This document shows, piece after piece, positions 2,535 to 19,034 of a DNA stretch of 20,000 nucleotides (position 1 is the stretch's first letter; each line of letters opens with the position of its first letter). This DNA is from an uncultured virus (IMG/VR IMGVR_UViG_3300020049_001346). Taxonomy: Duplodnaviria; Heunggongvirae; Uroviricota; Caudoviricetes. The stretch lies in the IMG/VR virus record IMGVR_UViG_3300020049_001346. The stretch is one strand, 5' to 3'. A program made the position numbers and the translations under genes. The notes below the pieces were generated by a model, which did no database searches, was not told the origin of the DNA, and saw only the letters and a list, made by a program, of their open reading frames with translations.

Positions 2535-2754
2535 AAACGGAAGGTGGACGCGCAATGGAGACGCGCTCACGGTGGCGGACAACCAAGACTTCACAGACAG
2601 ACTGATGAGAGTGAAAGAGTTTGCACGTGGACGCGAGTTGACACATAGCAAGGTTCAGGTACTGTTCAGGATATTGGACACGGACGAGTTGGTTGACGAC
2701 GCGCTGAACTGCGTGTTGGGGATGAGTAACAGACAGATAGCACAATTATTTTAG
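2524..2754 (+). CDS. hypothetical protein
   Basis: 76-aa ORF. Confidence 0.65.
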   Translation: MEIKNGRWTRNGDALTVADNQDFTDRLMRVKEFARGRELTHSKVQVLFRILDTDELVDDALNCVLGMSNRQIAQLF

Positions 2755-2768
2755 TCGGAGAGAGAGTT

Positions 2769-3038: not shown

Positions 3039-3066
3039 TTAAATACAGTCCTTGTAAAAGATACAA

Positions 3067-3166
3067 TGTAGGCCGTCTGTGTGCGTGAGTCAAAGTAGGA
3101 ATCAGTTGGCAATGAATTCATAGTCCTACAAACACAGACATTCTTTGACGGCTCGGAAAGACGGGC
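3067..3166 (+). ncRNA. structured intergenic RNA with boxA/boxB (nut)-like element
   Basis: GTCTGTGT(3075-82)/ACACAGAC(3132-39) and GTAGGA(3095-3100)/TCCTAC(3124-29) stems; ATTCTTTGAC(3140-49) followed by hairpin GCTCG-GAAAGA-CGGGC(3151-66). Confidence 0.5.
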
Positions 3167-3171
3167 AAAAC

Positions 3172-3243
3172 AGTCAGGTGGCAGTAATTGGTAACTGCGA
3201 AGCATTATGCATAGAAATACAGGTTCGAATCCTGTCCTGACTA
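3172..3243 (+). tRNA. tRNA-like element lacking a canonical anticodon arm
   Basis: Acceptor AGTCAGG/CCTGACT; D stem GCAG/CTGC with GG in loop; T arm ACAGG-TTCGAAT-CCTGT; only 20 nt between D and T arms and no 5-bp/7-nt anticodon arm. Confidence 0.8.
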
Positions 3244-3264
3244 CTAACTTTAAATTAAAACAAG

Positions 3265-3474
3265 ATGAAAGCAGTAGAATGGTTAGAAGAACAATATTAC
3301 GATTCAGAAGGCAAATTAACAAGACAAGATTTTGAACAAGCCAAAGAAATGGAGAAGCAACAACAAGGATATACTGAATATGAAGTATTAGATATACTAA
3401 AACAGTACGCACTTGAAGAACATTTAATAACATCATCTAAACCTGATGTATGGTTTAAACAATTTAAAAAATGA
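3265..3474 (+). CDS. small modular protein (AVEW...AKEMEKQQQGY..EV...WFKQFKK family)
   Basis: AT-rich; shares blocks with 16705, 17187 and 18643 ORFs. Confidence 0.8.
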   Translation: MKAVEWLEEQYYDSEGKLTRQDFEQAKEMEKQQQGYTEYEVLDILKQYALEEHLITSSKPDVWFKQFKK

Positions 3475-3812
3475 TAACAATAGAAGAACTTAAAAAAGAA
3501 ATAGCAAACAACTTGCTAGAATCTGAACTAAAAGATGACAGAGGTAAAAAATCTTTAGGTAAAAAGAATAAGGAACTGAGAGAGATTATAATGTATCTAG
3601 AGACAAATCCAAGTGAATTATTTATAAAGTCTGAGATACATAAAATTGATCGTATAATAAAATCTAAGTCTGACGGGTATGAGTATTGGACTAAAAACAT
3701 ATGTGACAAAAGCGTAGACGTAAGTAAAAGGAGGTCTTTGTTTAATTCACAGTTAGGCATAACTTCACTTAAAAGACAATTAAAAAAATTAAAATACATA
3801 CTAAAAAAATGA
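3471..3812 (+). CDS. hypothetical Lys-rich protein
   Basis: 113-aa AT-rich ORF, ATGA overlap. Confidence 0.75.
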   Translation: MITIEELKKEIANNLLESELKDDRGKKSLGKKNKELREIIMYLETNPSELFIKSEIHKIDRIIKSKSDGYEYWTKNICDKSVDVSKRRSLFNSQLGITSLKRQLKKLKYILKK

Positions 3813-3946
3813 AAGAAGAAGCACAAAGAATTTTAGATTTATTCAACGGGGACTACGTCCTAGGATTGAGATGTATTAACGAGTTGATACGTGAGACGGG
3901 AGCAAAGTATTGGTACGACGTAAGACGAGAGTATGAACAAGCGTAA
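3809..3946 (+). CDS. hypothetical protein (45 aa, MKEEAQRIL...YWYDVRREYEQA)
   Basis: Read by hand; ATGA overlap. Confidence 0.6.
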   Translation: MKEEAQRILDLFNGDYVLGLRCINELIRETGAKYWYDVRREYEQA

Positions 3947-4175
3947 GAAGGTAAAGGCGCAGTTGATGTACTGTCTGTGCAGTCTACTGCTAGAGTGTCT
4001 AGACGAGTTGAAGTCAACCACACAAAGGATGCTGAAGTTCAGGGACGACCTGATAGGCTTCTGCGAGGAGTTGAACAACGAGGTGGCCGACACCAACGTG
4101 ATACAGAGGGGTACGTACTTCCAAGAGTTAAGTAAGAAAATTGACACACTAATAAGAAAGAACTATGAAGAATGA
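3933..4175 (+). CDS. hypothetical protein
   Basis: 80-aa ORF. Confidence 0.7.
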   Translation: MNKRKKVKAQLMYCLCSLLLECLDELKSTTQRMLKFRDDLIGFCEELNNEVADTNVIQRGTYFQELSKKIDTLIRKNYEE

Positions 4176-4554
4176 AATTTGGAGGGACGCGACATGGTTC
4201 CACAAGTCGACAAGGCTTGACACACCGTACTCGAAGTCAAGAATATTCAAGGGTATAAAGATCGAGAACACGGACGGGGAGATAAAGATCCTGAACACAA
4301 AGTTAAACGGGGACTTCTACCAGGAGGTATCGAAGGAGGAGTACAGGATGTTCTATAGGCTAGGGTTCGAGCAGGGGTGCTACGAGATGTGCCTAGCGAA
4401 CTATAGGATGTCGCTGAATACAATCATCCGTAGCATACGAGATGAGATAGGGAACCGAAACAATCAGAAGCACTACCAGTATCTGAAGACGATGAGAGTG
4501 AACCTAATGGAGAAGTACACTAATGTTTTAAAAATCAAGTACGAAAATGTTTAA
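4165..4554 (+). CDS. hypothetical protein
   Basis: 129-aa ORF, backbone codon usage. Confidence 0.75.
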   Translation: MKNEIWRDATWFHKSTRLDTPYSKSRIFKGIKIENTDGEIKILNTKLNGDFYQEVSKEEYRMFYRLGFEQGCYEMCLANYRMSLNTIIRSIRDEIGNRNNQKHYQYLKTMRVNLMEKYTNVLKIKYENV

Positions 4555-4563
4555 TTTTTTTTG

Positions 4564-4571
4564 TATCTTTG
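4564..4571 (+). promoter_or_regulatory. Bacteroidota sigma-A -7 box (TATCTTTG)
   Basis: Matches TAnnTTTG, intergenic, upstream of structured leader and HNH gene. Confidence 0.75.
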
Positions 4572-4575
4572 CAAT

Positions 4576-4669
4576 GTAATGAAGTGAGACACATTGCGCC
4601 CGAAAATATTTAATAATCCTGTCAAGGAGGCATGTCTCACATTACTGCCAAATTGATGGGGTTTTTTTT
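4576..4669 (+). ncRNA. kissing-loop leader ending in an intrinsic terminator (attenuator-like)
   Basis: Hairpin GTAATG/CATTGC with loop GTGAGACA; hairpin ATCCTGTCAA/TTGATGGGGT plus GGCA/TGCC with loop TGTCTCACATTAC; T8 tract 4662-4669. Confidence 0.7.
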
Positions 4670-4674
4670 GTGAT

Positions 4675-5295
4675 ATGAAGAAGTGTACAAAGTGTAATGT
4701 TGAGAGGGAATTAATTGAGTTTAGTAAAGATAGAACTAGAATAGATGGATTATTTCCTCAATGTAAAAAGTGTAAAAAAATTGATGATGATAAATCTTAT
4801 TTAAATAATAAAAATAAAATAATTGCTAAATCTAAAAAATGGAATGAAGAAAATAAAGAAAGAAGAAAGGAATATAGAAGGCAATACAATATAAAAAATA
4901 AAGAAGTAGAAAATCAAAAATGTAGAGAATGGAATAAGTTAAATAGACATAAAGCAAATGAATATTTAAAAAACAGAATATTAAATGACCCTTTATTTAA
5001 ACTTAGTAGTAGTATACGATCTTTAATAAGGACTTCAATGAAAGGTAATGGATACTCAAAAAAAACTAAGACTTACAATATACTAGGATGTACATTTGAA
5101 GAATTTAAAAGTCATCTAGAAAGTCAATTTACCGAAGGAATGACTTGGGAGAATAAAGGTCAATGGCATATGGATCATATATACCCAGTATCATTAGCAA
5201 TAGACGAGGATCATATGATAAAGTTGAATCATTACACAAACTTCCAACCATTGTGGGCAAAAGATAATATAAGTAAATCAAATAAATTAAATTAA
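4675..5295 (+). CDS. free-standing HNH-type (homing-like) endonuclease with N-terminal zinc finger
   Basis: CTKC...DG...CKKC N-terminus; C-terminal LGC...LESQF..GMTWEN..QWHMDHIYP...NHYTNFQPLWAKDNISKSNK HNH motif; strongly AT-rich. Confidence 0.85.
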   Translation: MKKCTKCNVERELIEFSKDRTRIDGLFPQCKKCKKIDDDKSYLNNKNKIIAKSKKWNEENKERRKEYRRQYNIKNKEVENQKCREWNKLNRHKANEYLKNRILNDPLFKLSSSIRSLIRTSMKGNGYSKKTKTYNILGCTFEEFKSHLESQFTEGMTWENKGQWHMDHIYPVSLAIDEDHMIKLNHYTNFQPLWAKDNISKSNKLN

Positions 5296-5299
5296 ACAA

Positions 5300-5872
5300 A
5301 TGGAGAAAATTTTTAAAACATTATCAGAGATTGACATAAAGTCAAAAGTAGAGAAGAAGGGTAGTCAGAACTACCTCAGTTGGGCTAACGCGTGGGGGTT
5401 TGCAAAGCAAATGTATCCATCAATACAACGTATAGTGTACGAGGATCCGTTGACGGGACTTAACTACCTAAACGATGGTAAGACGGGCTATGTGAAGGTT
5501 GGAATTGTAATCGAGGGACTAGAGCACATCGACTACCTACCAATCATGAGCCACAACAACAAGTCAATTGGAATAGATAACATAACATCATTCGAGGTGT
5601 CAAAGACTATCCAAAGGAGCACTGTAAAGGCGTTGGCGCTTCACGGACTAGGCCTTCAGATGTGGAGTGGTGAAGACCTAGTGACAACTACAAAGGTAGA
5701 GAAGCCTTCAGGCCCTCTAGAGTTGACCATAGGTGACGCGAATTGGGACAAGGTCATCAAGTACATCAAGGACAACAAGCACCTTGGATTGGCCACGATA
5801 GTCAAGAACCTTGAGACGAAGTATAAAATTTCAACCGTAATCAAAAAAGAACTTGGGAAATATGTTGGATAG
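5300..5872 (+). CDS. sak: Sak-like (Rad52 fold, DUF1071-type) single-strand annealing protein
   Basis: VEKKG...YLSWANAW, GYVKVGIVI, LPIM..NN, IQRSTVKALALHGLGL motifs; next to exonuclease and SSB. Confidence 0.85.
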   Translation: MEKIFKTLSEIDIKSKVEKKGSQNYLSWANAWGFAKQMYPSIQRIVYEDPLTGLNYLNDGKTGYVKVGIVIEGLEHIDYLPIMSHNNKSIGIDNITSFEVSKTIQRSTVKALALHGLGLQMWSGEDLVTTTKVEKPSGPLELTIGDANWDKVIKYIKDNKHLGLATIVKNLETKYKISTVIKKELGKYVG

Positions 5873-6575
5873 ACTAAGAAATGACAAAGACTACTACGGG
5901 GACTACGGATCGCAGTTCCTAAGTAATAGCGCGGTGGGTGTACTATTAAGTAACCCTAAGATGTTTAAGGTAAAGCAGGAGCCGACGGTTCCTATGCTAC
6001 AAGGTAGCTACTTCCACACGGCCATATTGGAGCCTGAGAAGTTGGCCAACTTTGAGATAGTGGAGGCGAGCACGCGTAACACAAACATATACAAGGACGC
6101 GTCAAAGGGCAACCTGCTCCTGCTAAGGAATGAGTGTGACAACCTTGACGAGATGGTTCGCGTGATCAAGTCGAACTTCTTCTTTTACGAGAACATCTAC
6201 AAGGACGGAAACGTGTACGAGGAGCCCGCCATCATGGAGTTGTTCGGCCACAAGTTCAAGGGCAAGGCAGACATTGTGACAGACGAGATTATTATCGACA
6301 TCAAGACCACGTCAAAGATCTCTGACTTCAGGTGGTCTGCAAAGAAGTACAACTACGACTCGCAGTCATATTTGTATCAGCAATTTTTTGATAAACCCTT
6401 GATTTTCTACGTAATAGATAAGGGTACTCACGAGTTGGGTGTGTTCGAGCCTAGTGCAGAGTTCCTACTAGGAGGTAGAGAGAAGGTGTTGCGTGCGGTT
6501 GAGGTCTACGAAAAGTTCTTTGGAGACAGTCCTAAGGAGGACATAAATAATTTCTTCATAAGGGAAGATTTGTAA
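5862..6575 (+). CDS. PD-(D/E)XK exonuclease (DUF3799/RecE-like)
   Basis: LSNS, GSYFHTAILEPE, EE, KGKAD...IIDIKTT, YDSQSYLY motifs. Confidence 0.85.
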   Translation: MLDRLRNDKDYYGDYGSQFLSNSAVGVLLSNPKMFKVKQEPTVPMLQGSYFHTAILEPEKLANFEIVEASTRNTNIYKDASKGNLLLLRNECDNLDEMVRVIKSNFFFYENIYKDGNVYEEPAIMELFGHKFKGKADIVTDEIIIDIKTTSKISDFRWSAKKYNYDSQSYLYQQFFDKPLIFYVIDKGTHELGVFEPSAEFLLGGREKVLRAVEVYEKFFGDSPKEDINNFFIREDL

Positions 6576-6586
6576 CAAATTTGTTG

Positions 6587-6594
6587 TATATTTG
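6587..6594 (+). promoter_or_regulatory. Bacteroidota -7 box (TATATTTG)
   Basis: TAnnTTTG 28 nt upstream of the tRNA-like gene. Confidence 0.6.
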
Positions 6595-6622
6595 TTGCGG
6601 ATTATGGTGTCCATGGTCGGTT

Positions 6623-6694
6623 TGTTGTATAGTTTAGCGGTAGAATAGGCCTTGTTTAATAGGCTAGACGAGGGTTCGAGTCCCTCTGCAACAT
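6623..6694 (+). tRNA. atypical tRNA with 8-nt anticodon loop (identity undetermined)
   Basis: Acceptor TGTTGTA/TGCAACA; D stem GTTT/GAAT with loop AGCGGTA; anticodon stem GGCCT/AGGCT with loop TGTTTAAT; T arm GAGGG-TTCGAGT-CCCTC; no encoded CCA. Confidence 0.8.
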
Positions 6695-6749
6695 CAAACT
6701 GAATAGCCGACGGCAGTACAACTAGGTAGGCAAAATTAAATTTAATAAA

Positions 6750-7079
6750 ATGGCGAAAATTCAAGTGACGTTAGACGCGTCAAAGTTAAGAAACCTGATC
6801 TCTACAAGAAGCTACGAGAGCAAGGACGGTACAAATGTTAATGTACAAGAGGTTAAGTTCGAGTTGGTTGAGGTTAAGGAGCCTAAGCAGATCTTTGCTA
6901 AGGACACAATGAGAATTGTTAAGACGCACTTCGCGTGTGTGATCCAGACCAAGGAGGAGAGAGAGGCAAAGGCCGACACAGTCTACATCGGAGAGGGTTT
7001 CACATCCTATTGGGATGACGCTAAGAAGCCACAGGTAGTGCCTGAAGCTACCGTTGTTCCTGATGGACTACCATTCTAA
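6750..7079 (+). CDS. ssb: phage single-stranded DNA-binding protein (putative)
   Basis: Beta-rich body, C-terminal DGLPF tail, position after Sak and exonuclease. Confidence 0.7.
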   Translation: MAKIQVTLDASKLRNLISTRSYESKDGTNVNVQEVKFELVEVKEPKQIFAKDTMRIVKTHFACVIQTKEEREAKADTVYIGEGFTSYWDDAKKPQVVPEATVVPDGLPF

Positions 7080-7109
7080 AACGGTAGTTTTATTACCATT
7101 TTAATTCAC

Positions 7110-7117
7110 TACCTTTG
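7110..7117 (+). promoter_or_regulatory. Bacteroidota -7 box (TACCTTTG)
   Basis: TAnnTTTG 24 nt upstream of ATG 7142. Confidence 0.6.
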
Positions 7118-7141
7118 TTATTATTAATTAAATATAAATAT

Positions 7142-7678
7142 ATGAATGAGATTTTAACAAAGGTTTGTTTTAAATGTAATTTAGAAAAAAGTGTTTATGA
7201 TTTTTATAAGCACAAACAAATGGGTGATGGATACTTAGGTAAGTGTAAAGAATGTACAAAAAAAGATTCTAAAAAACAATTACAATTAAATATTTCTACT
7301 CCAGAGGGTCTTGAAAAAGAAAGAAAAAGACATAGAGAAAAGTATTTTAGATTAGATTATAGAGAAAAGCATAAGCCTAGTACTGAAAAAAAGAGATCTA
7401 TAATGAATAGATATAATCTAAAGTATCCAGGAAAAAAAATATGTAAATATCTTTCAAGAAATTTAAAACCAACAACAAAAGGAAACGAACTTCATCATTG
7501 GAATTATAATAGAGAATTTGCAAAAGATACAATAGAACTTAGTATTAAAGATCATAATAAAATACATAGGTTTTTAAAGTATGATTCAAATTTATTTATA
7601 TATATTGATGTTAATGGAAACTTATTAGATACTAAGGATAAGCATTTGTCTTTTATTCTTAAATTAATAGATTTATAA
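7142..7678 (+). CDS. second free-standing zinc-finger/HNH-like endonuclease
   Basis: CFKC...FYKHKQMGDGYLGKCKEC N-terminus; C-terminal LHHWNY...L...DHNKIH; AT-rich. Confidence 0.7.
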   Translation: MNEILTKVCFKCNLEKSVYDFYKHKQMGDGYLGKCKECTKKDSKKQLQLNISTPEGLEKERKRHREKYFRLDYREKHKPSTEKKRSIMNRYNLKYPGKKICKYLSRNLKPTTKGNELHHWNYNREFAKDTIELSIKDHNKIHRFLKYDSNLFIYIDVNGNLLDTKDKHLSFILKLIDL

Positions 7679-7682
7679 CTTC

Positions 7683-7813
7683 GGCACTAAACACTAATAA
7701 GTGCCAATAATTAGTTCAGTCTACACAGGCTGGACTTTACTTTGTGTGGTAGGATAGACCCCAATTTATGGGGTCTATTGTTCAGTAAAAGGTAACGTTC
7801 ATTAACAATGAAC
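7683..7813. repeat. cluster of four inverted repeats upstream of the primase
   Basis: GGCACT/AGTGCC(7683-7705); AGTTCAGTCT/AGGCTGGACT(7713-36, with G-T pairs); perfect ATAGACCCCA/TGGGGTCTAT(7754-78); GTTCATT/AATGAAC(7797-7813). Confidence 0.7.
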
Positions 7814-7831
7814 ATCGATAAAAAATGAACT

Positions 7832-10228
7832 ATGATAACAATATTTTCAAACATAAAGAGCACAGACACACCGTTCTTCAGGGGTATAGGTGTGGTTCTA
7901 CAGAGGATCAAGGACGGATCCTCAAGGGACAAGGTCGAGGCGATCCGCACCGAGTCAGACAAGGAGAGGAGGAACCTACTCAAGAGGGATCTGCCTTCGG
8001 TGTGCTTCTCGGGTACCTTCAACAAGCGTGAAGACAAGGCCATCGTAGACCACAGTGGTTTTATATGCCTTGACTTCGACGGTTACGAGACAGAGGATGA
8101 CCTACTAGCAGACAAAGTAAGGCTATCAGAGGATGCTCACAGTTACTCAGTGTTCGTGTCTCCATCAGGTAACGGACTAAAGGTAATCGTGAAGATACCT
8201 AAGGACATAGACAACCACAAGAACTACTTCAACTCACTAGAGAAGCACTTCGACTCCAAGTACTTCGACACCACGTCCAAGAACATATCTAGGGTTTGCT
8301 ACGAGTCGTACGACCCAGAGATATACATAAACGTGGACTCTAGGTTATGGGACAAGTTGGAGGAGGTGGAGTACGTTGAGTTAGACAGGTCTAGCAGTGT
8401 AACAACCATACCTATAACAAACGACAACAAGGTTGTAGAGATACTGATGAGGTGGTGGTCAAAGAACTACCCGATGGTTGACGGCAAGAGAAACAACAAC
8501 ATGTTTATATTGGCCTCAGCCTTAAACGATTACGGCGTGAACAAGTCACTGTCTGAGTACGTGATGAGTCAGTTCGTCAGTCAGAAGCACCCGATGTCTG
8601 AGATACAGACCATCATAAACTCTGCGTATAAGAACACGGGATCGTTCGGATCCAAGTACTTCGAGGACGACGACATGATCAATCAGGTTCGTCAGAAGAT
8701 CAAGAGGGGAGTGTCCAAGAAGGAGATCAAGTCAGACCTGTCGGAGACCAACCTACCTAGCTTCACGATAGACTCTGTGATAGACTCTATAGACAAGGAC
8801 GAGTCGGTCAACAAGTTCTGGAGCAAGTCGGACAAGGGATCCATAAGCATCGTGCACTACATGTTCAGAGACTTCTTGGAGGACAACGGGTTTTACAAGT
8901 ACATGCCCGTTGGAAACAAGAGTTTTATATTCGTGCGTGTTACGAATAACCTGATAGACCACACGTCAGAGGACGAGATCAAGGACTTCGTTCTCAACTA
9001 CCTACAGAATGTGGACGACCTGTCTGTGTACAACTTCTTCGCTGACAAGACTAGGTTCTTCAAGGAGGACTTCCTGTCGCTACTGTCATCGGTTGACGTG
9101 CACTTCATGGAGGACGACAAGAACAACGCGTACCTTTACTACACGAACTGTGCGGTAAACATCACCAAGAACACCATAAGTATTATAGATTACCTAGATC
9201 TGGGTGGGTACATATGGAAGGATCAGGTGATAGACAGGGAGTTCGACCTGTGCGAGGTAGAGGACTGCGACTTCAAGACATTCATTTCAAACATATCGGA
9301 CGATGATACAGTTAGGATTAACTCGGTTGAGAGTACTATTGGGTTCCTTCTGCACGGATATAAGAATCTATCTTACTGTCCTGCGGTCATTCTAAATGAC
9401 GAGGTCATAACGGACAACCCAGAGGGAGGAACAGGAAAGGGACTGTTCACCAACGCGATATCGCAGATGAAGAAGCTAGCATTCATAGATGGAAAGAGTA
9501 TCAACTTTGACAGTGGTTTCCCGTTTCAGACGGTATCGGTTGATACTCAGGTGCTAGCGTTTGATGATGTTAAGAAGCACTTCAACTTCGAGAGGCTGTT
9601 CTCGATCATCACAGAGGGTATCACCCTAGAGAGGAAGAACCAACAGGCCATGCACATACCATTCAACAAGTCACCTAAGATCATCATCACGACCAACTAC
9701 GCCATCAAGGGTAAGGGTAACTCGTTCGAGAGACGTAAGTGGGAGTTGGAGTTCAAGCAGTTCTACACCAAGGAGTTCACTCCACAGGTTGAGTTCGGCA
9801 GGCTACTGTTCACGGAATGGGACGAGCACGAGTGGTGCAGGTTCGACAACTACATGATCAAGAGCCTTCAGAGGTATCTCACATCAGGCCTACTCAAGAG
9901 CGAGTTCGTCAACCTTAAGATCCGTAAGCTATCTGCAGACACATGCCACGAGTTTATCGACTGGTGTGGCCTAATCAACGGTGAGGCACACAGCGACAAG
10001 CTGGTACTGGGTGAGGTGATATACAAGCAGGATCTGTACATAGACTTCATTCAGGACAACCCAGACTTCCAACCAAAGGCCAAGAGGACTATATCCAGGA
10101 CAGAGTTCTATAACTGGCTGATCTCCTACGGGATATACATATCAGGTGTCAAGCCTATAGAGGGTAGGAGCAGTACAGGAATGTGGATTAAATTCGTTGG
10201 CAAGGATGAAGACAGCATATTATTTTAA
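7832..10228 (+). CDS. primase-helicase: BT4734/VirE-N AEP primase + PriCT-1 + SF3 helicase
   Basis: LPSVCFSGTF, GFICLDFD, SPSGNGLK; GKRNNNMFILA; Walker A GGTGKG, Walker B LAFDD, motif C IIITTN. Confidence 0.9.
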   Translation: MITIFSNIKSTDTPFFRGIGVVLQRIKDGSSRDKVEAIRTESDKERRNLLKRDLPSVCFSGTFNKREDKAIVDHSGFICLDFDGYETEDDLLADKVRLSEDAHSYSVFVSPSGNGLKVIVKIPKDIDNHKNYFNSLEKHFDSKYFDTTSKNISRVCYESYDPEIYINVDSRLWDKLEEVEYVELDRSSSVTTIPITNDNKVVEILMRWWSKNYPMVDGKRNNNMFILASALNDYGVNKSLSEYVMSQFVSQKHPMSEIQTIINSAYKNTGSFGSKYFEDDDMINQVRQKIKRGVSKKEIKSDLSETNLPSFTIDSVIDSIDKDESVNKFWSKSDKGSISIVHYMFRDFLEDNGFYKYMPVGNKSFIFVRVTNNLIDHTSEDEIKDFVLNYLQNVDDLSVYNFFADKTRFFKEDFLSLLSSVDVHFMEDDKNNAYLYYTNCAVNITKNTISIIDYLDLGGYIWKDQVIDREFDLCEVEDCDFKTFISNISDDDTVRINSVESTIGFLLHGYKNLSYCPAVILNDEVITDNPEGGTGKGLFTNAISQMKKLAFIDGKSINFDSGFPFQTVSVDTQVLAFDDVKKHFNFERLFSIITEGITLERKNQQAMHIPFNKSPKIIITTNYAIKGKGNSFERRKWELEFKQFYTKEFTPQVEFGRLLFTEWDEHEWCRFDNYMIKSLQRYLTSGLLKSEFVNLKIRKLSADTCHEFIDWCGLINGEAHSDKLVLGEVIYKQDLYIDFIQDNPDFQPKAKRTISRTEFYNWLISYGIYISGVKPIEGRSSTGMWIKFVGKDEDSILF

Positions 10229-10490
10229 GTGGTGCATAGAGAATGACTTTCAGGTTTACATCAAGCCTGAGAGTTATTACTATAAGATAGCGATCCGTAA
10301 GGGTGGCATCACATCAAACGGCAAGGACTTCTACTACGACAGAGATACTGGGATGGAGTACTACAGTAACGAGAGGACAGGCTCGGTTAGATACAAGAGT
10401 GTTGACATGGCGTCAGCAAAGTTACACGATGTTTATAAGTACCTATATGAAGAAAACACTAAGGGATTACCAGTCAGACCTAGCAGGTAA
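10206..10490 (+). CDS. hypothetical protein
   Basis: ORF between primase and helicase; start MKTAYY. Confidence 0.7.
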   Translation: MKTAYYFKWCIENDFQVYIKPESYYYKIAIRKGGITSNGKDFYYDRDTGMEYYSNERTGSVRYKSVDMASAKLHDVYKYLYEENTKGLPVRPSR

Positions 10491-11673: not shown

Positions 11674-11855
11674 AAGAAGTTAACGGAAAGTTTGTGCCTC
11701 AGGTAGGCAATTGGTTTAAGGGATACAGACCAATAGATAGAAAGAGTTCATATCTTTGGACAGATAATTATGAAGTATACTGCGAGTTAGATACACTACA
11801 AGAAGCCTTAGATAGAATTGAAAAGTATAAAATTAAATACCACAAAGTAAAATGA
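11661..11855 (+). CDS. hypothetical protein
   Basis: 64-aa ORF starting an AT-rich island. Confidence 0.7.
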   Translation: MYRVKEVNGKFVPQVGNWFKGYRPIDRKSSYLWTDNYEVYCELDTLQEALDRIEKYKIKYHKVK

Positions 11856-12061
11856 CATTAAAAGATAAATTTCAACAATGGTTCATCAATGATGAAGAAG
11901 ATGAACATTATGAAGGAATGGTAGAACTCGTATCTATCGAACATGAAAAAATAGCAGATGAATTTGCTATTGGATTTGGAGAATTTATGCTTACAAAAGT
12001 ATTTGTAAAAAAATCAGTAACAGAATTATTAGAAATTTATAAAAAAGAAAAAGGATTATGA
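11852..12061 (+). CDS. small hypothetical protein (IADEFAIGF...ELLEIYKKEKGL type)
   Basis: AT-rich, ATGA-coupled at both ends. Confidence 0.75.
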   Translation: MTLKDKFQQWFINDEEDEHYEGMVELVSIEHEKIADEFAIGFGEFMLTKVFVKKSVTELLEIYKKEKGL

Positions 12062-12231
12062 CACCAAAAGAAAAAGCACAAGAGTTAATTGATAAATATG
12101 ATTCAATTTTAACTTATAAATCCAAACAATGTGCATTAGTAGCAGTTGATGAAGTTAGAAATAATTTACCATTAATATCAGATATACAACAATATTGGAT
12201 TGAAGTTAAACGAGAAATAGAGAAATTATGA
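12058..12231 (+). CDS. small hypothetical protein (MTPKEKAQEL...QCALVAVDE...YWIEVKREIEKL)
   Basis: Read by hand, 57 aa, ATGA-coupled. Confidence 0.75.
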   Translation: MTPKEKAQELIDKYDSILTYKSKQCALVAVDEVRNNLPLISDIQQYWIEVKREIEKL

Positions 12232-12362
12232 AACAAAAAATAATAAATAAAATGAATGAGGGACAGGAAGAAGATGTACCCTTGTACACGTGGGAGACAA
12301 TACCTAACAACTTAAAACAATTTTGGAAGCAATGGCTAGTAGATTTCAAACAAAGACAATAG
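12228..12362 (+). CDS. hypothetical protein (44 aa)
   Basis: Read by hand; ATGA-coupled. Confidence 0.5.
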   Translation: MKQKIINKMNEGQEEDVPLYTWETIPNNLKQFWKQWLVDFKQRQ

Positions 12363-12601
12363 CAAGGTTCAAGTCCGATGGATGGATCGTGCTGAACACA
12401 ATCAAGCTGAGCGATAGCGGTTACCCAGACCTGATCTGTCTCAAGGACGGTAAGACTGTATTCATAGAGTGCAAGGAGGATGGTGACACACTGAAGCCAC
12501 TACAGGAGTACAGAATAGATGAACTAATATCCCAAGGCTTCGAGGCTTACTGCCTGCACGCAACCAAGGGACAAATATATCCACCATGTACACAACAGTA
12601 G
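12332..12601 (+). CDS. VRR-NUC domain nuclease (putative junction resolvase)
   Basis: GYPDLICL...VFIECK...LKPLQ...IDEL..QGF motif. Confidence 0.85.
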   Translation: MASRFQTKTIARFKSDGWIVLNTIKLSDSGYPDLICLKDGKTVFIECKEDGDTLKPLQEYRIDELISQGFEAYCLHATKGQIYPPCTQQ

Positions 12602-12942
12602 AGGCATGCAAGGAGATAAACATGAAGACAGACGCGTTCAGAAAGAGGGCTAAATTAATTGGCCTTGTTGCTATGAGAGAGTCAGGCGTGTTCATGTGGA
12701 ACGACAAGCAGATAGATGCCATACAGAAGTACAAGAGGACGATGTCCACGAACTACTTCAGGTACTCTAAGAAGAAGATAAGCATCGTAGACTTCTACCT
12801 GACGCACAGGTACAACACACAGTCAGAGATCGCCAGTGCCATGGACATAAGCGTGACAAACGTAAATACAGCACTCAACGAGTACCTAGAGACAGGGTGT
12901 GTGGTAGTGGCATCGAGGATGAATGTTGATAACTTTTTTTAA
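12586..12942 (+). CDS. putative HTH DNA-binding protein
   Basis: YTTVEACKEINM N-terminal and TQSEIASAMDISVTNVNTAL C-terminal HTH-like patterns. Confidence 0.6.
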   Translation: MYTTVEACKEINMKTDAFRKRAKLIGLVAMRESGVFMWNDKQIDAIQKYKRTMSTNYFRYSKKKISIVDFYLTHRYNTQSEIASAMDISVTNVNTALNEYLETGCVVVASRMNVDNFF

Positions 12943-12961
12943 TAGTAAGTACGTTAATTTA

Positions 12962-12969
12962 TACATTTG
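12962..12969 (+). promoter_or_regulatory. Bacteroidota -7 box (TACATTTG)
   Basis: TAnnTTTG in short intergenic gap before ATG 12983. Confidence 0.5.
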
Positions 12970-12982
12970 ATAAAAAAACAAT

Positions 12983-13141
12983 ATGGAATATGTGAATAAG
13001 ACAATGTTATCTATTAATAATCTGACGGATGACATATACGAGGGCTTAGCGGACAAGGACTACGTTGCGCTAAACAAGACAATAGCTGAGCTAGTTGCAC
13101 TGCTAAAGGAGATCCAGACCTCAATGAAGACCGAACTGTGA
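12983..13141 (+). CDS. hypothetical helical protein (52 aa)
   Basis: Read by hand; GTGA overlap with next ORF. Confidence 0.65.
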   Translation: MEYVNKTMLSINNLTDDIYEGLADKDYVALNKTIAELVALLKEIQTSMKTEL

Positions 13142-13515
13142 GACAGCTAGTGTACAACTCAGTTACGTGCCTCAGCTGTAAGGAGGTGCTTGTGTCACAC
13201 CACAGGCACGACTACAAGACGTGCGGCTGCGACAACCAGACGATGGTTGACGGAGGAACAGCGTACTCAAGGTACGGTGGTTTAGACCTAAAGAAGGTGA
13301 AACCATTCTTTGTTCACGACGACGATCCATACGAGGAGGTACGAGAGTACGCCGAGAGGGGTGGACGCGGTAAGGACGGGACAGAGCCACTTACATGGGT
13401 GAAGTTGAAGGACATGGACGAGGACTGGCTGTATGCCATACTTGACTACGGAGGCCCAGAGTGGCACATAAATTTAATCAAAAAAGAAATAGACTACAGG
13501 AATGATAATAACTGA
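13138..13515 (+). CDS. phage zinc-binding protein
   Basis: CLSC...S.HRHDYKTCGC...VDGG..Y.R motif. Confidence 0.75.
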   Translation: MRQLVYNSVTCLSCKEVLVSHHRHDYKTCGCDNQTMVDGGTAYSRYGGLDLKKVKPFFVHDDDPYEEVREYAERGGRGKDGTEPLTWVKLKDMDEDWLYAILDYGGPEWHINLIKKEIDYRNDNN

Positions 13516-13590
13516 TAAATGTCCTAATCGTCACCTTACAGAAGGATTCATAAGATGTGATGCGAAACACAAAAAAGTAACAATACTATT

Positions 13591-13818
13591 ATGAAAATAG
13601 ATAAATTAATAGAATTATTAGATGTTGAAGAAGCTATTATAATAGTCAACAAGAAAACTATAGATTCATTTTTTGACAATACAGAAGGTATAAGTGGTGG
13701 ATCTGCTACTTTTGATATGCCAATACACATGGGTGCAAGAGGAATATATAGAAATGGGGTAAACATATATTTTATAGATCAAGAAGATTTAGAAGATATA
13801 AAATTTAAAAAATTATGA
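13591..13818 (+). CDS. hypothetical protein
   Basis: AT-rich 75-aa ORF ending KFKKL. Confidence 0.7.
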   Translation: MKIDKLIELLDVEEAIIIVNKKTIDSFFDNTEGISGGSATFDMPIHMGARGIYRNGVNIYFIDQEDLEDIKFKKL

Positions 13819-14084
13819 TAACAACAACGACGACTAAGGACATAGTGGTGAACGGCCACAAGATAATCAACCCAACCGTCGACACGGTGGTAAGGGCAGT
13901 TAGAAAGGATCTGTTAGACAGATCAAACCTTGGAATAAACAAGTACAACAACACGTTAGACAGGACAGACATAGACCTGAAGGGCTGGCTACAGCATGCG
14001 TACGAGGAGTGCCTAGACCAGGCCAACTATCTAAAGAGAAGTATAATCGAAATAGAGAGAAATGAAAGAGCACAAGATAAGTAA
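13815..14084 (+). CDS. putative all-alpha NTP pyrophosphohydrolase (MazG-like fold)
   Basis: R...GINKYNNTLDR.D...WLQHAYEECLDQANYL, with EExxD metal motif. Confidence 0.55.
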   Translation: MITTTTTKDIVVNGHKIINPTVDTVVRAVRKDLLDRSNLGINKYNNTLDRTDIDLKGWLQHAYEECLDQANYLKRSIIEIERNERAQDK

Positions 14085-14190
14085 GAAGCAGAGGATACTC
14101 ATAGTGATGAAGTACCTGTACTCACGAGGAGCCAACAAGGAGTCTGTCAACGAGGTATACAGAAAGATAATCTGCAAGGCTAATGATTAG
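14062..14190 (+). CDS. hypothetical protein (42 aa)
   Basis: Read by hand; fills gap. Confidence 0.55.
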   Translation: MKEHKISKKQRILIVMKYLYSRGANKESVNEVYRKIICKAND

Positions 14191-14734
14191 TGTAGTAGAC
14201 AACTTCCTTCCAGAGGATGAGTTCAAGTCGTTGCAGGAGTACTGCGACAACAACCTGTTTGAGATAGTTAACTTTTCAGGCAAGTCGTTCTCAGTCCTGA
14301 CTCCACCAAGTAGCATATACAACTACCTGCACATGGACGGTTACGAGATGGTATTGTCATTTGTCAGGAGCGCATACAAGGGGTTCGACACGAGCCTATG
14401 GATACACGCTGACGACATAGTGCAGGGAAAGAAGATAGACATAGCCTCTGTGCTGTATATCAACGACGATGAGGATGTGACCGAGAACGGAACAGCGTTC
14501 TGGAAGCACTACGTGTACGGAAGAACCTTACCAAAGGACTGCACGAACTCAGACTTTGATAAGATACTACTTGAGGATGCCGATAACAGATCCAGTTGGT
14601 TAAAGAAGGACTACATATCGTCAAGGCCGAACAGGATGCTGACTTATGATGCAGATTACTTCCACTCAAAGTATCCAGAGGAGATCACTGAGGGAATAAG
14701 AAAAGTTTTAGTAACATTTTACACAAAGATATAA
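14183..14734 (+). CDS. 2OG-Fe(II) oxygenase (DUF6445-like)
   Basis: VVDNFL, WIHAD (HxD), ASVLYI, GTAFW, NRML.YD..YFHS, RKVLVTF. Confidence 0.8.
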   Translation: MISVVDNFLPEDEFKSLQEYCDNNLFEIVNFSGKSFSVLTPPSSIYNYLHMDGYEMVLSFVRSAYKGFDTSLWIHADDIVQGKKIDIASVLYINDDEDVTENGTAFWKHYVYGRTLPKDCTNSDFDKILLEDADNRSSWLKKDYISSRPNRMLTYDADYFHSKYPEEITEGIRKVLVTFYTKI

Positions 14735-16299
14735 TGGGAAAGTATTCAGAAGAATTTAAAGCGTACATAGGGCTAGCACTAGCTATGGGTCACAACATTA
14801 CACACGCCACAAAGATGGCGTGCATTGAGTTCGGTATCCCTTACGAGGATCAGGTTCGCAGGACAATGTCTAAGCACCTAGAGAGAACTGGAGTAACCGA
14901 TAATAAAGAACTTCCAGAGTCGGACATGTTCCTAGAGGCCCAGAAGAGGGAGCTCGACAAGACCAAGCAGAGGTTCATAGTATCATGGTGCCAGTCTGAC
15001 ACAGAGATACACGAGCAGTTCCTTACAAACATAGAGGCGTACGCCAACGAGATAGATGCAGAGATATCCATCATAGCTGGTAGGTACAAGAACCCTACGT
15101 CACTGAACTCAAGCAAGAGGGTAAAGGAGAAGGAGGAGAGAAACTCGTGGTCGCCAAGGGTAGAGAGGTACCTAGACGCAAACAGGCACAAGGTACACAA
15201 GCACCTGTGTATCCTATCAGACCTTAAAATTCAGCCGACAGCATCAACTCCCCTTTCTGGGATTAACGGCCTCACAGGGCTTGAAAGTTGCGTCGTTGGA
15301 CACCCTAGGGTACACCTTAAGTCCCTGCCAATACTTGACGGTTATCCTCACAAGCTGTTGGTTACTACAGGAGCCATATCGCTACAGAACTACACAGACA
15401 CCAAGTCTGGTAAGAAGGGTGAGTTCCACCACACGCTAGGTTTTGTTATCATAGAGTTGGACGAGGATGACTTCCACATAAGACAGGTTACAGCTGACGA
15501 GGACGGGTCTTTCTATGACCTGCACTACAATGTAATAGCTGGATCCATACGTGAGACAAGCAAGACCGTTATGGTGTTTGGTGACCTCCACCTTGGTGAG
15601 ACAAACGACGATGTTCTTGATGTCTCGTTCAGGATGGCTGAGGACCTGAACTGTGAGGATATAGTACTACACGACGTGTTCAACGGGCACTCCATATCAC
15701 ACCACGAGCGTAACCAACCGTTCCAGGTTATGGCCAGGGAGGAGGACGGATCTGGTGACCTTATGCTGGAGCTAAACAACATGGCCGCGTTCTTTGACAG
15801 GTACTCAGACTTTAACTTTGTGATGGTCAGGAGCAACCACGACGAGTTCTTGGACAGGTGGCTAAACGACGTGGACTGGCGAAAGAGTACCAACAAGAGT
15901 ACCTACCTAGAGCTTGCACATGTGCTTAAGAATGACACCATTGGCAAGGGGATTATCCCTGCTATACTGAATAAGTTCGGTGTAATAAACGTGAACTGCC
16001 TAGGTATAAACGATAGCTTCAGGGTTGCTAACATAGAGTGTGGCGTACACGGACACATAGGAGCCAACGGCAGTCGTGGTGGTGTCATTCAGTTCAAGAA
16101 CTTGAACACCAAGAACATAACTGGTCACACTCATAGTCCTTGTCGTGAGGACGGCCACTCGTCTGTTGGAACCTTGACCCACCTAAGGGTTGGCTACAAC
16201 AAGGGTGCATCTAGCTGGATGAATACTAATGTGGTGATCTACCCTAACGGAAAGTCACAGCACGTACACATCATTAATAATAAATATACCACGTTATGA
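14734..16299 (+). CDS. large calcineurin-like metallophosphoesterase
   Basis: GDLHLG, LHDVFNG, SNHDEFL, GVHGH, TGHTHS motifs in C-terminal half. Confidence 0.85.
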   Translation: MGKYSEEFKAYIGLALAMGHNITHATKMACIEFGIPYEDQVRRTMSKHLERTGVTDNKELPESDMFLEAQKRELDKTKQRFIVSWCQSDTEIHEQFLTNIEAYANEIDAEISIIAGRYKNPTSLNSSKRVKEKEERNSWSPRVERYLDANRHKVHKHLCILSDLKIQPTASTPLSGINGLTGLESCVVGHPRVHLKSLPILDGYPHKLLVTTGAISLQNYTDTKSGKKGEFHHTLGFVIIELDEDDFHIRQVTADEDGSFYDLHYNVIAGSIRETSKTVMVFGDLHLGETNDDVLDVSFRMAEDLNCEDIVLHDVFNGHSISHHERNQPFQVMAREEDGSGDLMLELNNMAAFFDRYSDFNFVMVRSNHDEFLDRWLNDVDWRKSTNKSTYLELAHVLKNDTIGKGIIPAILNKFGVINVNCLGINDSFRVANIECGVHGHIGANGSRGGVIQFKNLNTKNITGHTHSPCREDGHSSVGTLTHLRVGYNKGASSWMNTNVVIYPNGKSQHVHIINNKYTTL

Positions 16300-16514
16300 T
16301 ACTATCAGTAATAGTTTTTTACATAATACCTGCAATACTATCCGTATTCATGATTCTTAATAAACAAAATCAAGCTACAATAGGAGATTTAATAATTATA
16401 ATTTTAGTTTCTCTTTTACCAATAGTTAATTTGTTTAGTGGATATGTAGGTGGATTGATAACCCTATGTAATTCAAAAAAAGTAAATAACTTTTTAAACA
16501 AAAGAATAAAATGA
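16296..16514 (+). CDS. small membrane protein
   Basis: Two hydrophobic segments; AT-rich. Confidence 0.7.
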   Translation: MILSVIVFYIIPAILSVFMILNKQNQATIGDLIIIILVSLLPIVNLFSGYVGGLITLCNSKKVNNFLNKRIK

Positions 16515-16708
16515 AGTACCTACTAGTTCTAATGGCATACGAGTTTATAAGGTCGAAGATGATTTGGCTTTGGTATTATTTAATCAAAAAAAGGACAAGG
16601 AGAATGAGAAATATATTTTTATTTATTTGTAAAATAGTATTTGGATTTTTAACTGGATTTGTATTAATGACTTTAATTTTTGAAATATTAAAACAAATAA
16701 GATTATGA
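16511..16708 (+). CDS. small membrane protein
   Basis: Hydrophobic halves; internal ATG may mark a second module. Confidence 0.6.
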   Translation: MKYLLVLMAYEFIRSKMIWLWYYLIKKRTRRMRNIFLFICKIVFGFLTGFVLMTLIFEILKQIRL

Positions 16709-16902
16709 ATATTCAAGACGAAGTGCAAAAAATCCATCATAAATATGGAACAAGCGAAATGGCAAATTATGAGATACAAAAGTTGTTTGATAAGCAACAA
16801 GAAAGAAGTTATAGTGAGGAAGAAGTTATGAATATAATTGACAGTTTTATAGATAATTTTGATTCAAGAAAAGAGTGGTTTAAACAATTTAAAAAGAAAT
16901 AA
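16705..16902 (+). CDS. small modular protein (QQERSYSEEEV...WFKQFKKK)
   Basis: Shares blocks with 3265 and 18643 ORFs. Confidence 0.8.
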   Translation: MNIQDEVQKIHHKYGTSEMANYEIQKLFDKQQERSYSEEEVMNIIDSFIDNFDSRKEWFKQFKKK

Positions 16903-16903
16903 G

Positions 16904-17185
16904 ATGAGAGAAAAAATAACACCAAAAGAATTTAGAAAAAAAACAATTAAAACTTTCCCAACTATATTTAGAACATGTGTTTTTTTAAGAATATCAAGTA
17001 TTGAAATTATTGACAGAGATATTTGGAAAAATAATCATGATTATGAATATAAAGTTCGTGAGATTAATTTATACAACCCTTTGAGTTATCTTGTATTACT
17101 ATTTCTTATACCTATTGGATTATTGATTGGTGGATTTAACAAAGAAACATTTAAAAGTATTAAACAACTATTTAAAAAGAAATAA
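16904..17185 (+). CDS. small membrane protein ending LFKKK
   Basis: ATG right after junction repeat; NPLSYLVLLFLIPIGLLIGG TM segment. Confidence 0.75.
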   Translation: MREKITPKEFRKKTIKTFPTIFRTCVFLRISSIEIIDRDIWKNNHDYEYKVREINLYNPLSYLVLLFLIPIGLLIGGFNKETFKSIKQLFKKK

Positions 17186-17186
17186 G

Positions 17187-17438
17187 ATGAAAAAAACAGC
17201 AGTAATGTTAATAAGAAATTGGGTAAGAACTAATGGAAATATGAGTGGTGATGGAAAATTTATAGCATATAGTTGTAAAAAACTTGAAAAAGTTATTGCC
17301 CAAGTAATAGAAATGGAAAAGAAACAGATAATCAATGCTTGTAACCAAACAGAGTTTGAAGATATTGATGGAATGGATATCCACGAAACAATAACAAGAG
17401 GAGAACAATATTACAACGAAACATTTTTAAACAAATAA
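17187..17438 (+). CDS. small modular protein (MKKTAV...EMEKKQI...EQYYNETF)
   Basis: ATG right after junction repeat; shared blocks. Confidence 0.8.
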   Translation: MKKTAVMLIRNWVRTNGNMSGDGKFIAYSCKKLEKVIAQVIEMEKKQIINACNQTEFEDIDGMDIHETITRGEQYYNETFLNK

Positions 17439-17439
17439 A

Positions 17440-17607
17440 ATGAAAAAAATAATATACAATATTTCAATTTTTAGGTTTTGGTTTAAATATATATTTTTAA
17501 AAACACCTATGGAAATTGATGTAATAGAATTTATTAAAAAAAATTACAATGCGACTAAAAGAGAACAAAATTTAATTAATAGAGTAAAAAAAATTAACAA
17601 CCTTTAA
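17440..17607 (+). CDS. hypothetical protein (55 aa)
   Basis: Read by hand; stop TAA lies inside the junction repeat. Confidence 0.65.
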   Translation: MKKIIYNISIFRFWFKYIFLKTPMEIDVIEFIKKNYNATKREQNLINRVKKINNL

Positions 17608-17618
17608 AAAGAAATAAT

Positions 17619-17750
17619 ATGAAAACAAAAAATAGTACACCTACTTCGGAGTTTGAAGAAAAAGATAAATGCCCCTCTTGTGGAAGTTATTGCAACATTC
17701 ATACTGATTTAGATGAAAATGATGAATGTAATGATTGTAGACTATGTTAG
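17619..17750 (+). CDS. small Cys-rich zinc-finger peptide (43 aa)
   Basis: Read by hand: CPSC...CNDC. Confidence 0.6.
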   Translation: MKTKNSTPTSEFEEKDKCPSCGSYCNIHTDLDENDECNDCRLC

Positions 17751-18106
17751 TAAAAGCTATTGCAAACGAAAACAATAGAGATGATTTTGCTATTGATTTT
17801 AAAATAGGAGAAGAAATAATTGGAGAATCTACAAGATATTCTCAAAATTATATTTGGTTGGATTTTTGGAATTATAATAAACAAAACCAAATAAAAGATT
17901 TTAAATATGATGATATTTTGTTTGTAAAAACAAAAGTAAAAATAGTAAAAGGCACAATAAAAAGATTACAATGTAATTATTGTGAAAATTATGATAAAGG
18001 TAATGGAACTTGCAAAAGTGAATATTGTCTTTACAAACAAGAAAAAGCAAGTGAACACGAAGATTATTCATTAGTTCAGGATTATTCTTGCGGAGGTTTA
18101 CAATAA
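17744..18106 (+). CDS. hypothetical protein with C-terminal Cys cluster
   Basis: CNYC...C...C...C. Confidence 0.7.
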   Translation: MLVKAIANENNRDDFAIDFKIGEEIIGESTRYSQNYIWLDFWNYNKQNQIKDFKYDDILFVKTKVKIVKGTIKRLQCNYCENYDKGNGTCKSEYCLYKQEKASEHEDYSLVQDYSCGGLQ

Positions 18107-18126
18107 ATTTAAAAAGAAATAAGATT

Positions 18127-18615
18127 ATGACAATTACAATTACTAACAAAGATGGTTCAAACCAAATTAGCAAATTCTCAGAAAATAAAATTAAACATAT
18201 TACCGAAACCAATCAATGGGGGTATGTTATTGAGGCTATTTTAAGAGGTCCAAACAAAGAAAATATGTATAGAGAAAAAGAAATAAACCCGATTGCAAGG
18301 TTAAGTGCTACAGATATTATGGAAGATTGTAAAGAAGAACAAATTACTTTAGAAAAAGGGGTACAAAAGGCGACATTAATTCAACAAACAATTATGTCAC
18401 TAGAAGAAATTAATAGTAGATTATATGGTATTAATAAACGTTTAGAAGATTTAACATTTAAAACTGGTCTATGTAGTGCTGAACCAGATTCTGGTGATAC
18501 ATGTGAATCTGGTGATGATACATATACAACAAGATTACTTAATAATTTAAATACTATTGATACTAGGTTAAATTTTATTACTGATAGGATAACTGATTTA
18601 GAAAAATTTATATAA
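18127..18615 (+). CDS. hypothetical coiled-coil protein
   Basis: ATG after junction repeat; heptad-like C-terminal half. Confidence 0.7.
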   Translation: MTITITNKDGSNQISKFSENKIKHITETNQWGYVIEAILRGPNKENMYREKEINPIARLSATDIMEDCKEEQITLEKGVQKATLIQQTIMSLEEINSRLYGINKRLEDLTFKTGLCSAEPDSGDTCESGDDTYTTRLLNNLNTIDTRLNFITDRITDLEKFI

Positions 18616-18642
18616 GTAATTATGAAAATATCAAATAAAATT

Positions 18643-18888
18643 ATGAAACAAACAGTAGTAGAATTTATATTTGAAGAATTAGAAAATAGACAAAACGGTT
18701 ATCCATATTTTACAATGGAACAAATTTATAATAAAGCTAAAGAAATGGAAAAGGAACAACAAGGTTATAGTCATGAAGAAGTTAAGAGCATTTTATTTGA
18801 ATGGTCAATGTATAAGGTAAGTACAATTATTGAACTTGTTGATGTTATGGATTATGAGAAATGGTTTGAACAATTTAAAAAGATATGA
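18643..18888 (+). CDS. small modular protein (MKQTVVEF...AKEMEKEQQGYSHEEV...WFEQFKK)
   Basis: Paralogue of 3265-3474; alternative start 18622. Confidence 0.8.
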   Translation: MKQTVVEFIFEELENRQNGYPYFTMEQIYNKAKEMEKEQQGYSHEEVKSILFEWSMYKVSTIIELVDVMDYEKWFEQFKKI

Positions 18889-19034
18889 AAGATTCAATTA
18901 AAAAGTGGTGGAATAGAAAATGGGGTAACTGGGAACACATACAAGATTTAACTTATAGTACAGGTGAACTAAGTGGAATTATCATAAAAAGAACATCAAA
19001 CGATGGATTAGTTCAATTTAAAAAAATAAAATGA
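18885..19034 (+). CDS. hypothetical protein (49 aa, ends VQFKKIK)
   Basis: Read by hand; ATGA-coupled at both ends. Confidence 0.65.
   Translation: MKDSIKKWWNRKWGNWEHIQDLTYSTGELSGIIIKRTSNDGLVQFKKIK

Follow-up and report, generated by a model that had tools for sequence, protein, structure and literature searches.

Diversity-generating retroelements (DGRs), integrons and CRISPR arrays all alternate constant elements with variable ones. Several other phage systems also resemble the case described here. The gp38 adhesin genes of T2/T6-type phages carry hypervariable segments between conserved motifs within one gene; exchanges fall within or near these motifs, and the motif core presents the variable loops (PMC3157838). 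The PeSL cassettes of phages RB49 and phi1, and the linkers of Botstein and Campbell, are short conserved elements at which homologous recombination adds, removes or replaces small accessory genes, with no dedicated recombinase identified (PMC2839356). Relaxed recombination by Rad52-like proteins (Redbeta, Erf, Sak) reshapes accessory regions through short or diverged homology (PMC3945230), and microhomology rearrangements in T4 likewise show general recombination remodelling such regions (PMC9391042). We analysed a stretch of 20,000 nucleotides from an uncultured freshwater tailed virus (IMG/VR record IMGVR_UViG_3300020049_001346, Caudoviricetes; 'the window' below), which encodes five members of a family of small proteins. 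In their genes constant blocks of about 20–40 nt alternate with variable segments in frame. Taken as a whole, the family is best read, with a probability of about 0.7, as a set of coding 'linkers' shuffled by general annealing recombination and encoding small acidic helical proteins with swappable loops.

A preliminary description, made from the letters of the window, had recognized four member open reading frames (ORFs); their translations and all coordinates and matches given there are correct. ORF 3265 (3265–3474; 69 aa; GC 0.30; four predicted helices) has the order A-V1-B-C-V3-D, with block A at 3268–3285, B at 3337–3360, C at 3367–3387 and D at 3451–3471, V denoting a variable segment. 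ORF 18643 (18643–18888; 81 aa) has the same order (A 18652–18669, B 18733–18759, C 18763–18783, D 18862–18882). ORF 16705 (16705–16902; 65 aa) ends in C-V3-D (C 16804–16827, D 16876–16896), and its head, formerly an undefined 'x', is a conserved module, K (MNIQDE...QKLFD), which occurs with many different tails. ORF 17187 (17187–17438; 83 aa) is of the type A-V1-B-H-V2-E: a worn block A (17196–17213) is followed by B (17301–17327), E (17400–17426) and, between these two, the extra block H (IIDA, 17325–17339). The set is enlarged by a fifth member, ORF 11852 (11852–12061; x-I-V-J), with block I (DEFAIGF) at 11957–11977 and block J (ELLEIYKKEKGL) at 12023–12058; both blocks are joined to A-B heads in two proteins from elsewhere. 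The window types are hence A-B-C-D (twice), K-C-D, A-B-H-E and x-I-J.

The blocks read TAVEWL (A), AKEMEKQQ (B), IIDA (H), EQYYNETF (E), YSEEEV (C), WFEQFKKK (D), QETLEEAA (F), GAKWQQER (G), FAIGF (I) and ELLEIYKKEKGL (J). Their grammar branches: the heads A-V-B, F-V-G or K lead into the tails H-V-E, C-V-D or I-V-J, and longer proteins are chains of several such head/tail units. The median net charge of the members is −4 (n = 413).

The variable segments change partner at the blocks. Among 60 other homologues of ORF 3265, 30 share only V1 with it, 21 only V3, nine neither, and none both. For ORF 16705, 116 of the 119 listed homologues (of 209) share the head only and three the tail only, again with none sharing both; in these three the tail is identical and the heads are of the F-G type. 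V2 of ORF 17187 (beginning CNQTEFEDIDGM) is paired with three other V1 alleles, and one of the proteins concerned combines it with V1 of ORF 3265. V3 of ORF 18643 is also found in two other loci. We then considered 252 two-segment proteins from which exact duplicates had been dropped: the second allele was common to 5 of 71 pairs sharing the first, and the first to 5 of 137 pairs sharing the second, counts in which pairs sharing both segments are under-represented because part of the set (P0062–P0211) consists of representatives of 50%-identity clusters. Nearly all multi-member alleles in this set (29/31 and 28/29) had at least two partners. At DNA level the step is sharp. In the 13 such pairs with DNA sequence, mean identity was 0.92 over the 45 nt that precede block B and 0.89 within the block, but only 0.33 beyond it.

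The same exchanges are visible at one genomic site in relatives, that is, in records 86–95% identical to the window in the backbone. The nearest record (G001) is identical to the window over 1–17009, and a motif scan of its other 27 kb found no further family member. At 16300–19030 the window carries 2.7 kb in place of which G002 has 415 nt with a different C-V-D gene, G003 only the first small ORF, and G006 a different A-V-B-H-V-E gene. G002 is unrelated to the window upstream of block D and matches it from 18860 onwards, the next gene being identical at 146 of 150 nt. The reassortment counts, the identity step and this breakpoint bear out the proposal of the preliminary description that blocks act as crossover points between which variable segments assort.

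Whole cassettes are also gained and lost, at stop-start overlaps, between close relatives. Cassettes 3163–3776, 11660–12227 and 13509–13835 are absent from G002; the first, which contains ORF 3265, is replaced by other genes there, and the second, which contains ORF 11852, is missing from G003 too. Six indels end at stop-start junctions with repeats of 3–7 nt (ATG, ATGA, ATGATAA) and would be the outcome of joining at microhomology followed by selection against damage to neighbouring genes. Whole-gene insertions unrelated to blocks, at 1742, 11660, 13502, 14062, 16296 and 16604 as compared with G002, G003 and G006, have the same stop-start endings. In three lake DNA runs, an empty join of 16295–16511 was found in contigs of all three; in these contigs the stretch from block C to block D had a different sequence, and loose ends coincided with the edges of blocks, at a low likeness setting to which other phages contribute.

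Block D, which closes a gene, also serves as the start region of the gene behind it. At 16876–16906 its last codons run through the stop codon into an A-rich start region (TTTAAAAAGAAATAAG-ATG), and junctions of the TTTAAAAAGAAATAAG type recur behind unrelated ORFs at 17167–17189, 17599–17621 and 18104–18129. Block D itself caps unrelated ORFs in five other loci. In most members the next ATG lies at −4 to +5 of the stop codon, and 183 different downstream gene starts follow D- and E-ending genes. Adenines at −6, −12 and −13 are start-region positions. Together with A at −3 they occur in 64 of 96 D-ending genes, although the test is weak in AT-rich DNA; for position −3, see PMC6847099.

The reading frame is kept throughout. 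The spacing between blocks is a multiple of three in 349 of 349 cases from loci selected by DNA and in 504 of 504 overall, counted as distinct segments and not as independent lineages. An internal stop codon interrupts only two of the 504 segments, most of which contain stops in the other frames. Each variable segment comes in 18–22 distinct lengths.

Blocks F, G and C are clearly conserved as DNA beyond the need of the protein, blocks A, B, H and E less so. All blocks fix codons that are rare in the variable segments: Ala is GCC in 76 of 89 cases as against 5% there, and fixed choices are also seen in block G (Gly GGT 59/61, Ala GCT 56/58), block F (Leu CTT 45/54), block C (Ser AGT 84/90) and block E (Tyr TAC, 50 and 54 of 71). 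Between genes with unrelated segments the synonymous difference in block G is 0.06, compared with 0.34 within allelic segments. The corresponding figure for block D is biased by selection.

Within the window, a 20-mer of block D is identical at 3451 and 16876 and matches at 19 of 20 positions at 18862. The longest exact repeat in the 4,163 nt of AT-rich cassette DNA is 21 nt, and since none of 500 triplet shuffles reached 20 nt, repeats of 20–21 nt are beyond chance. The match of 3338–3373 to 18734–18769 (32/36) contains three synonymous changes (GCC/GCT, GAG/GAA, GGA/GGT) and one nonsynonymous change (CAA/GAA). The 13-mer reported at 3288 and 17402 is present, but taken alone it is not above chance, as 428 of 500 shuffles reach at least 13 nt; the copy at 3288 sits in the variable segment after block A and not in the C-terminal position that E holds in the family.

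At protein level, positions at the segment ends that belong to the flanking helices are hydrophobic in 94–95% of 266 V1 alleles. The ratio of nonsynonymous to synonymous differences (pN/pS) within variable alleles is 0.27, 0.42, 0.37 and 0.18 (30, 11, 10 and 7 pairs), values biased low by the definition of alleles at 60% protein identity. Structure prediction, suggested in the preliminary description, gave confident, all-helical AlphaFold models: three helices for an A-B-H-E protein (pLDDT 80, pTM 0.66) and four for ORF 3265 (pLDDT 84, pTM 0.48), with the blocks inside helices. A fold search returned generic helical matches (best Z 5.8, rmsd 3.7, 67 aligned; and 4.0, rmsd 7.8, 66 aligned), and in BFVD only uncharacterized phage proteins were hit, with no fold match standing out. 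The homodimer prediction score was 0.18.

These observations can be assembled as follows. Aquatic Bacteroidota phages would draw on a shared pool of very small, AT-rich accessory genes that follow one block grammar. When phages co-infect a cell or meet a prophage, crossovers may be made by their general recombination at short homology, through a Sak/Rad52-type annealing protein with an exonuclease. The window encodes a candidate for each: a Sak single-strand annealing protein at 5300–5872 (Pfam SSAP_Sak, E 3.6e-27; PHROG 659) and, at 5853–6575, an Exonuclease VIII-like nuclease (DUF3799, Pfam and PHROG scans), presumably its partner. Exchange would keep the blocks homogeneous, and a commoner block would be a better landing site, which would make the linker self-reinforcing. 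The two blocks of a pair are predicted to form two amphipathic helices of a small helical hairpin, of which the loop and the outer faces vary. As to use, our guess is a scaffold displaying interchangeable binding surfaces for host proteins, be they targets of defence or of takeover.

Coding linkers and general recombination are favoured because no reverse transcriptase (RT) or integrase recurs near members among the 75 of 178 neighbour clusters scanned, because the commonest large neighbour is a Rad52-like cluster (26 of 125 loci), and because the cores of variable segments match no ORF outside the family in the collected loci. An annealing-type recombinase is probably the crossover enzyme, by a modest margin of confidence. 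Rad52-like recombinases favour short, diverged exchanges (PMC3945230). That the proteins are small acidic helical scaffolds presenting swappable surfaces against host proteins is a guess we hold at somewhat less than even odds; such a role would account for the persistence of thousands of variants under purifying selection. More speculative, and rather doubtful as it stands, is an open, antibody-like library of the Bacteroidota phage community, in which standard helical framework blocks, selected as DNA for compatibility in recombination between unrelated phages, carry thousands of interchangeable binding loops and, by in-frame recombination, supply new inhibitors of host defence or host machinery with no dedicated enzyme.

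Several points weigh against this picture, in addition to the under-counting in the 252-protein set and the low bias of pN/pS. The allele graph of the 252 proteins contains no four-gamete cycle. In blocks A, B, H and E the synonymous difference between unrelated genes (0.21–0.40) is not lower than in allelic segments (0.18–0.20). In 99 of the 125 loci no Rad52-like cluster lies within the flank examined, and it is by deduction that the annealing protein is assigned the crossovers. The study of Rad52-like proteins also reports a RecA-cofactor role for lactococcal Sak proteins, and the regions it calls 'short' run to hundreds of bases (PMC3945230), so activity of Sak on blocks of 20–40 nt would be an extrapolation. 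Expression of members was not seen in small shares of RNA runs.

The main rival to a binding scaffold is that the linkers are selfish or passive. Blocks would spread as landing sites and translation starts, the peptides would do little, and selection would merely keep the frame open and the product harmless. Several facts fit this view: cassettes are absent from 94%-identical relatives, the interior of the array has near-zero cover in the three lake DNA runs despite a deep backbone, block D ends unrelated ORFs as well as forming a start region, and the segment combinations of the window were not seen twice. It fits less well with the pN/pS of variable segments (0.18–0.42, biased low as it is), with the fixed hydrophobic positions and confident helical models, and with the internal blocks B, C, G and H, which have no start-region role. 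We consider it unlikely, though the strongest of the competitors.

The shuffling might also arise mainly within single genomes, by gene conversion or unequal crossing-over between copies, a source compatible with coding linkers exchanged by general recombination. Tandem copies are indeed common (four loci), and in one locus two genes agree in V1 but not in V2. However, the five members of the window share no variable segment, their partners sit in other genomes, and the cassettes at a given site differ between relatives, which makes a predominantly internal origin improbable.

Still less probable is a dedicated machine that writes the variable segments, whether a DGR with its RT, an integron-type integrase or CRISPR-like capture of foreign spacers. 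The repeat-spacer look, and the indels that end neatly at stop-start overlaps with 3–7 nt repeats, would suit it, and an enzyme could act in trans from the host. Yet no RT or tyrosine integrase was found in the window (30 ORFs scanned) or in the 75 of 178 neighbour clusters scanned, and a single serine recombinase occurs in one of 125 loci. The window has no template copy, and the blocks tolerate mismatches. A comparison of variable cores with non-family ORFs of the collected loci gave no match among 900 BLAST hits; of the ten that were flagged, one was a match of 21 nt and the others belonged to the family or were frameshifted alleles. The 'diversity-generating system' of the preliminary description holds as ordinary short-homology recombination at standardized blocks and not as a dedicated system, and its 'repeat-spacer' likeness, if it means acquired foreign spacers, is not supported, given that no outside source was found in the collected loci, that the segment ends are fixed as hydrophobic, and that no RT or integrase recurs beside them.

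Ordinary, gradually diverged paralogues with conserved helices and fast loops can be set aside almost entirely: variable segments retain hydrophobic helix-end positions and may be old homologous loops, but segments that are almost identical abut others that cannot be aligned, similarity breaking off abruptly at the block, and identical tails sit on heads of different type (A-B, F-G, K). The outcome that the preliminary description named as refuting block shuffling, congruent gradual divergence, is thus not what the comparisons show, and gradual divergence is refuted as the sole explanation.

The family is large. A profile built from 63 A-V-B-H-V-E proteins hit 9,234 representatives of 50%-identity clusters at E 0.001 and 2,369 at 1e-10, some of which may be fragments or sister families. 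Exact DNA scans of IMG/VR found block B in at least 123 and block D in at least 120 loci; a similar scan of viral contigs for V1 of ORF 3265 gave no match. Pfam and PHROG scans of the four ORFs, two family alignments and 34 long members revealed no family above cut-off, a PDB sequence search had no match under E 0.2, and the ESM Atlas returned only unnamed viral clusters, with SRP54_N structure rows below the bar. Neither tblastn with ORF 3265 nor blastn with ORF 18643 gave a meaningful match among GenBank phages. In the largely open-access literature we found no earlier account of the A/B/C/D/E family, though one may exist, and PMC7077304 does not mention elemo phages.

The hosts are probably Bacteroidota. 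This is suggested by the primase, which matches those of Flavobacterium, Nonlabens, Polaribacter and Cellulophaga phages, by a member carried in 68 records of cultured elemo phages of Flavobacterium BAL314, by the Bacteroidota label of 7 of 11 loci from genome collections, and by the occurrence of the head module of ORF 16705 in records named Flavobacterium. A cultured Elemovirus phage (MT497074) has three members within 1.7 kb, of the types I-J, A-B-H-E and F-G-C-D.

Other families are built in a similar way. ORF 12058–12231 belongs to a parallel block-and-variable family (TPKEKA / KQCALIAVDE / YWQEVKQEIEKL; PHROG 21441, E 1.2e-8), represented in the collected loci by 20 distinct ORFs in which constant blocks flank gaps that cannot be aligned. 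It shares the block-and-gap build and differs in having a PHROG match, the A/B/C/D/E family being without PHROG, Pfam or PDB counterpart; one chimera of this type carries block A. By eye, ORF 3809–3946 looks like a worn relative of it. A further block-and-variable family of 200–390 aa (PTDKPSRL / NIYITSDEEIKEGDW / KIILTTD..DDEFLEWFVKNPSCE / YKIIIPKEE; L346:1861–2985 and three other examples) is present in 18 of 125 loci and has no Pfam match. It feeds into the F-G-C-D chain, its forms of 300–390 aa (two examples) ending in F-V-G-C-V-D.

The window represents a tailed-phage replication and accessory region with all genes on the plus strand, and family scans also identified a primase and a helicase. 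Its backbone (GC about 43–53%) is broken by islands of 22–31% GC. An AT-rich accessory array (16296–19030; GC 0.22–0.29) holds about 12 translationally coupled small ORFs, including three family members. At 123–175, on the plus strand, there is a candidate type I hammerhead ribozyme with full core and three stems (Rfam Hammerhead_1, E 3.5e-5, 27.5 bits, below the gathering score of 34); its motif is repeated ahead of small early genes three times in G002 and twice in G001, and the element may be a cassette linker in its own right. On the plus strand, Rfam also shows two tRNA-like genes whose anticodon loops are odd, at 3172–3243, just upstream of ORF 3265, and 6623–6694, of which ARAGORN detects only the second, with undefined anticodon; relatives have other sequence at both sites. 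Two AT-rich ORFs (4675–5295 and 7142–7678), each absent from G002 and G003, resemble HNH homing endonucleases; the first is accompanied by a replaced 5' end of the sak gene. A 4Fe-4S dicluster ferredoxin (Pfam Fer4_7) is encoded at 2232–2534. In the structural region of G001, at about 5260–6869 on the minus strand, lies an ORF of 535 aa that resembles a GroEL-type chaperonin.

Clear-cut cases of the linker model of modular evolution in phages are few. In this family the linkers lie inside coding sequence, keep the frame and supply the next start, and they are common to at least several thousand distinct proteins without a Pfam or PHROG model. The system is a direct test bed for selection that keeps DNA compatible for recombination across unrelated phages, and block shuffling accounts for some of the many small ORFs that appear as singletons in freshwater viromes. 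Should the loops bind targets in the host, the family would be a natural library of anti-defence proteins, and a cultured phage-host pair with three members makes the steps testable.

How, then, does the family compare with the described systems? Features of DGRs and integrons were looked for and not found: there was no RT or tyrosine integrase among the 30 window ORFs and 75 neighbour clusters scanned, no template repeat or long template pair in the window, and neither a recurrent site-specific recombinase nor a palindromic att site or other att-type or inverted sites of an integron or shufflon. As to CRISPR arrays, whose spacers have near-constant length and are copied from foreign DNA, the segments vary in length (18–22 classes), and no foreign source for them was found in the collected loci, host genomes not having been searched. 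The gp38 system is a single structural receptor-binding gene with glycine-rich motifs in fixed order (PMC3157838); the block family consists of helical accessory ORFs of 60–90 aa, in multiple copies, with at least ten blocks in a branching grammar and on unrelated backbones, and in the window its helical ORFs of 65–83 aa lie among replication and accessory genes, with no glycine-rich motif, tail-fibre tip or structural module. PeSL elements are intergenic, combine a sigma-70 promoter with a terminator stem-loop and move whole ORFs (PMC2839356); the blocks are coding and split genes from within while preserving the frame, the last of them providing the start region of the following gene, with no promoter-terminator pair or terminator-like site at any block. 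The working principle, short conserved elements bordering exchanged segments, is shared. The rearrangements described in PMC3945230 and PMC9391042 involve chance homologies and whole genes, not standardized intragenic blocks common to thousands of genes. The block family is outside each of these named systems, but it works like gp38 shuffling and like PeSL/Botstein linkers, probably powered by general recombination as in PMC3945230 and PMC9391042. What it adds to them is a multi-branch grammar, a comparison of orthologous sites in which the sequence switches at block D, and three members in a cultured phage.

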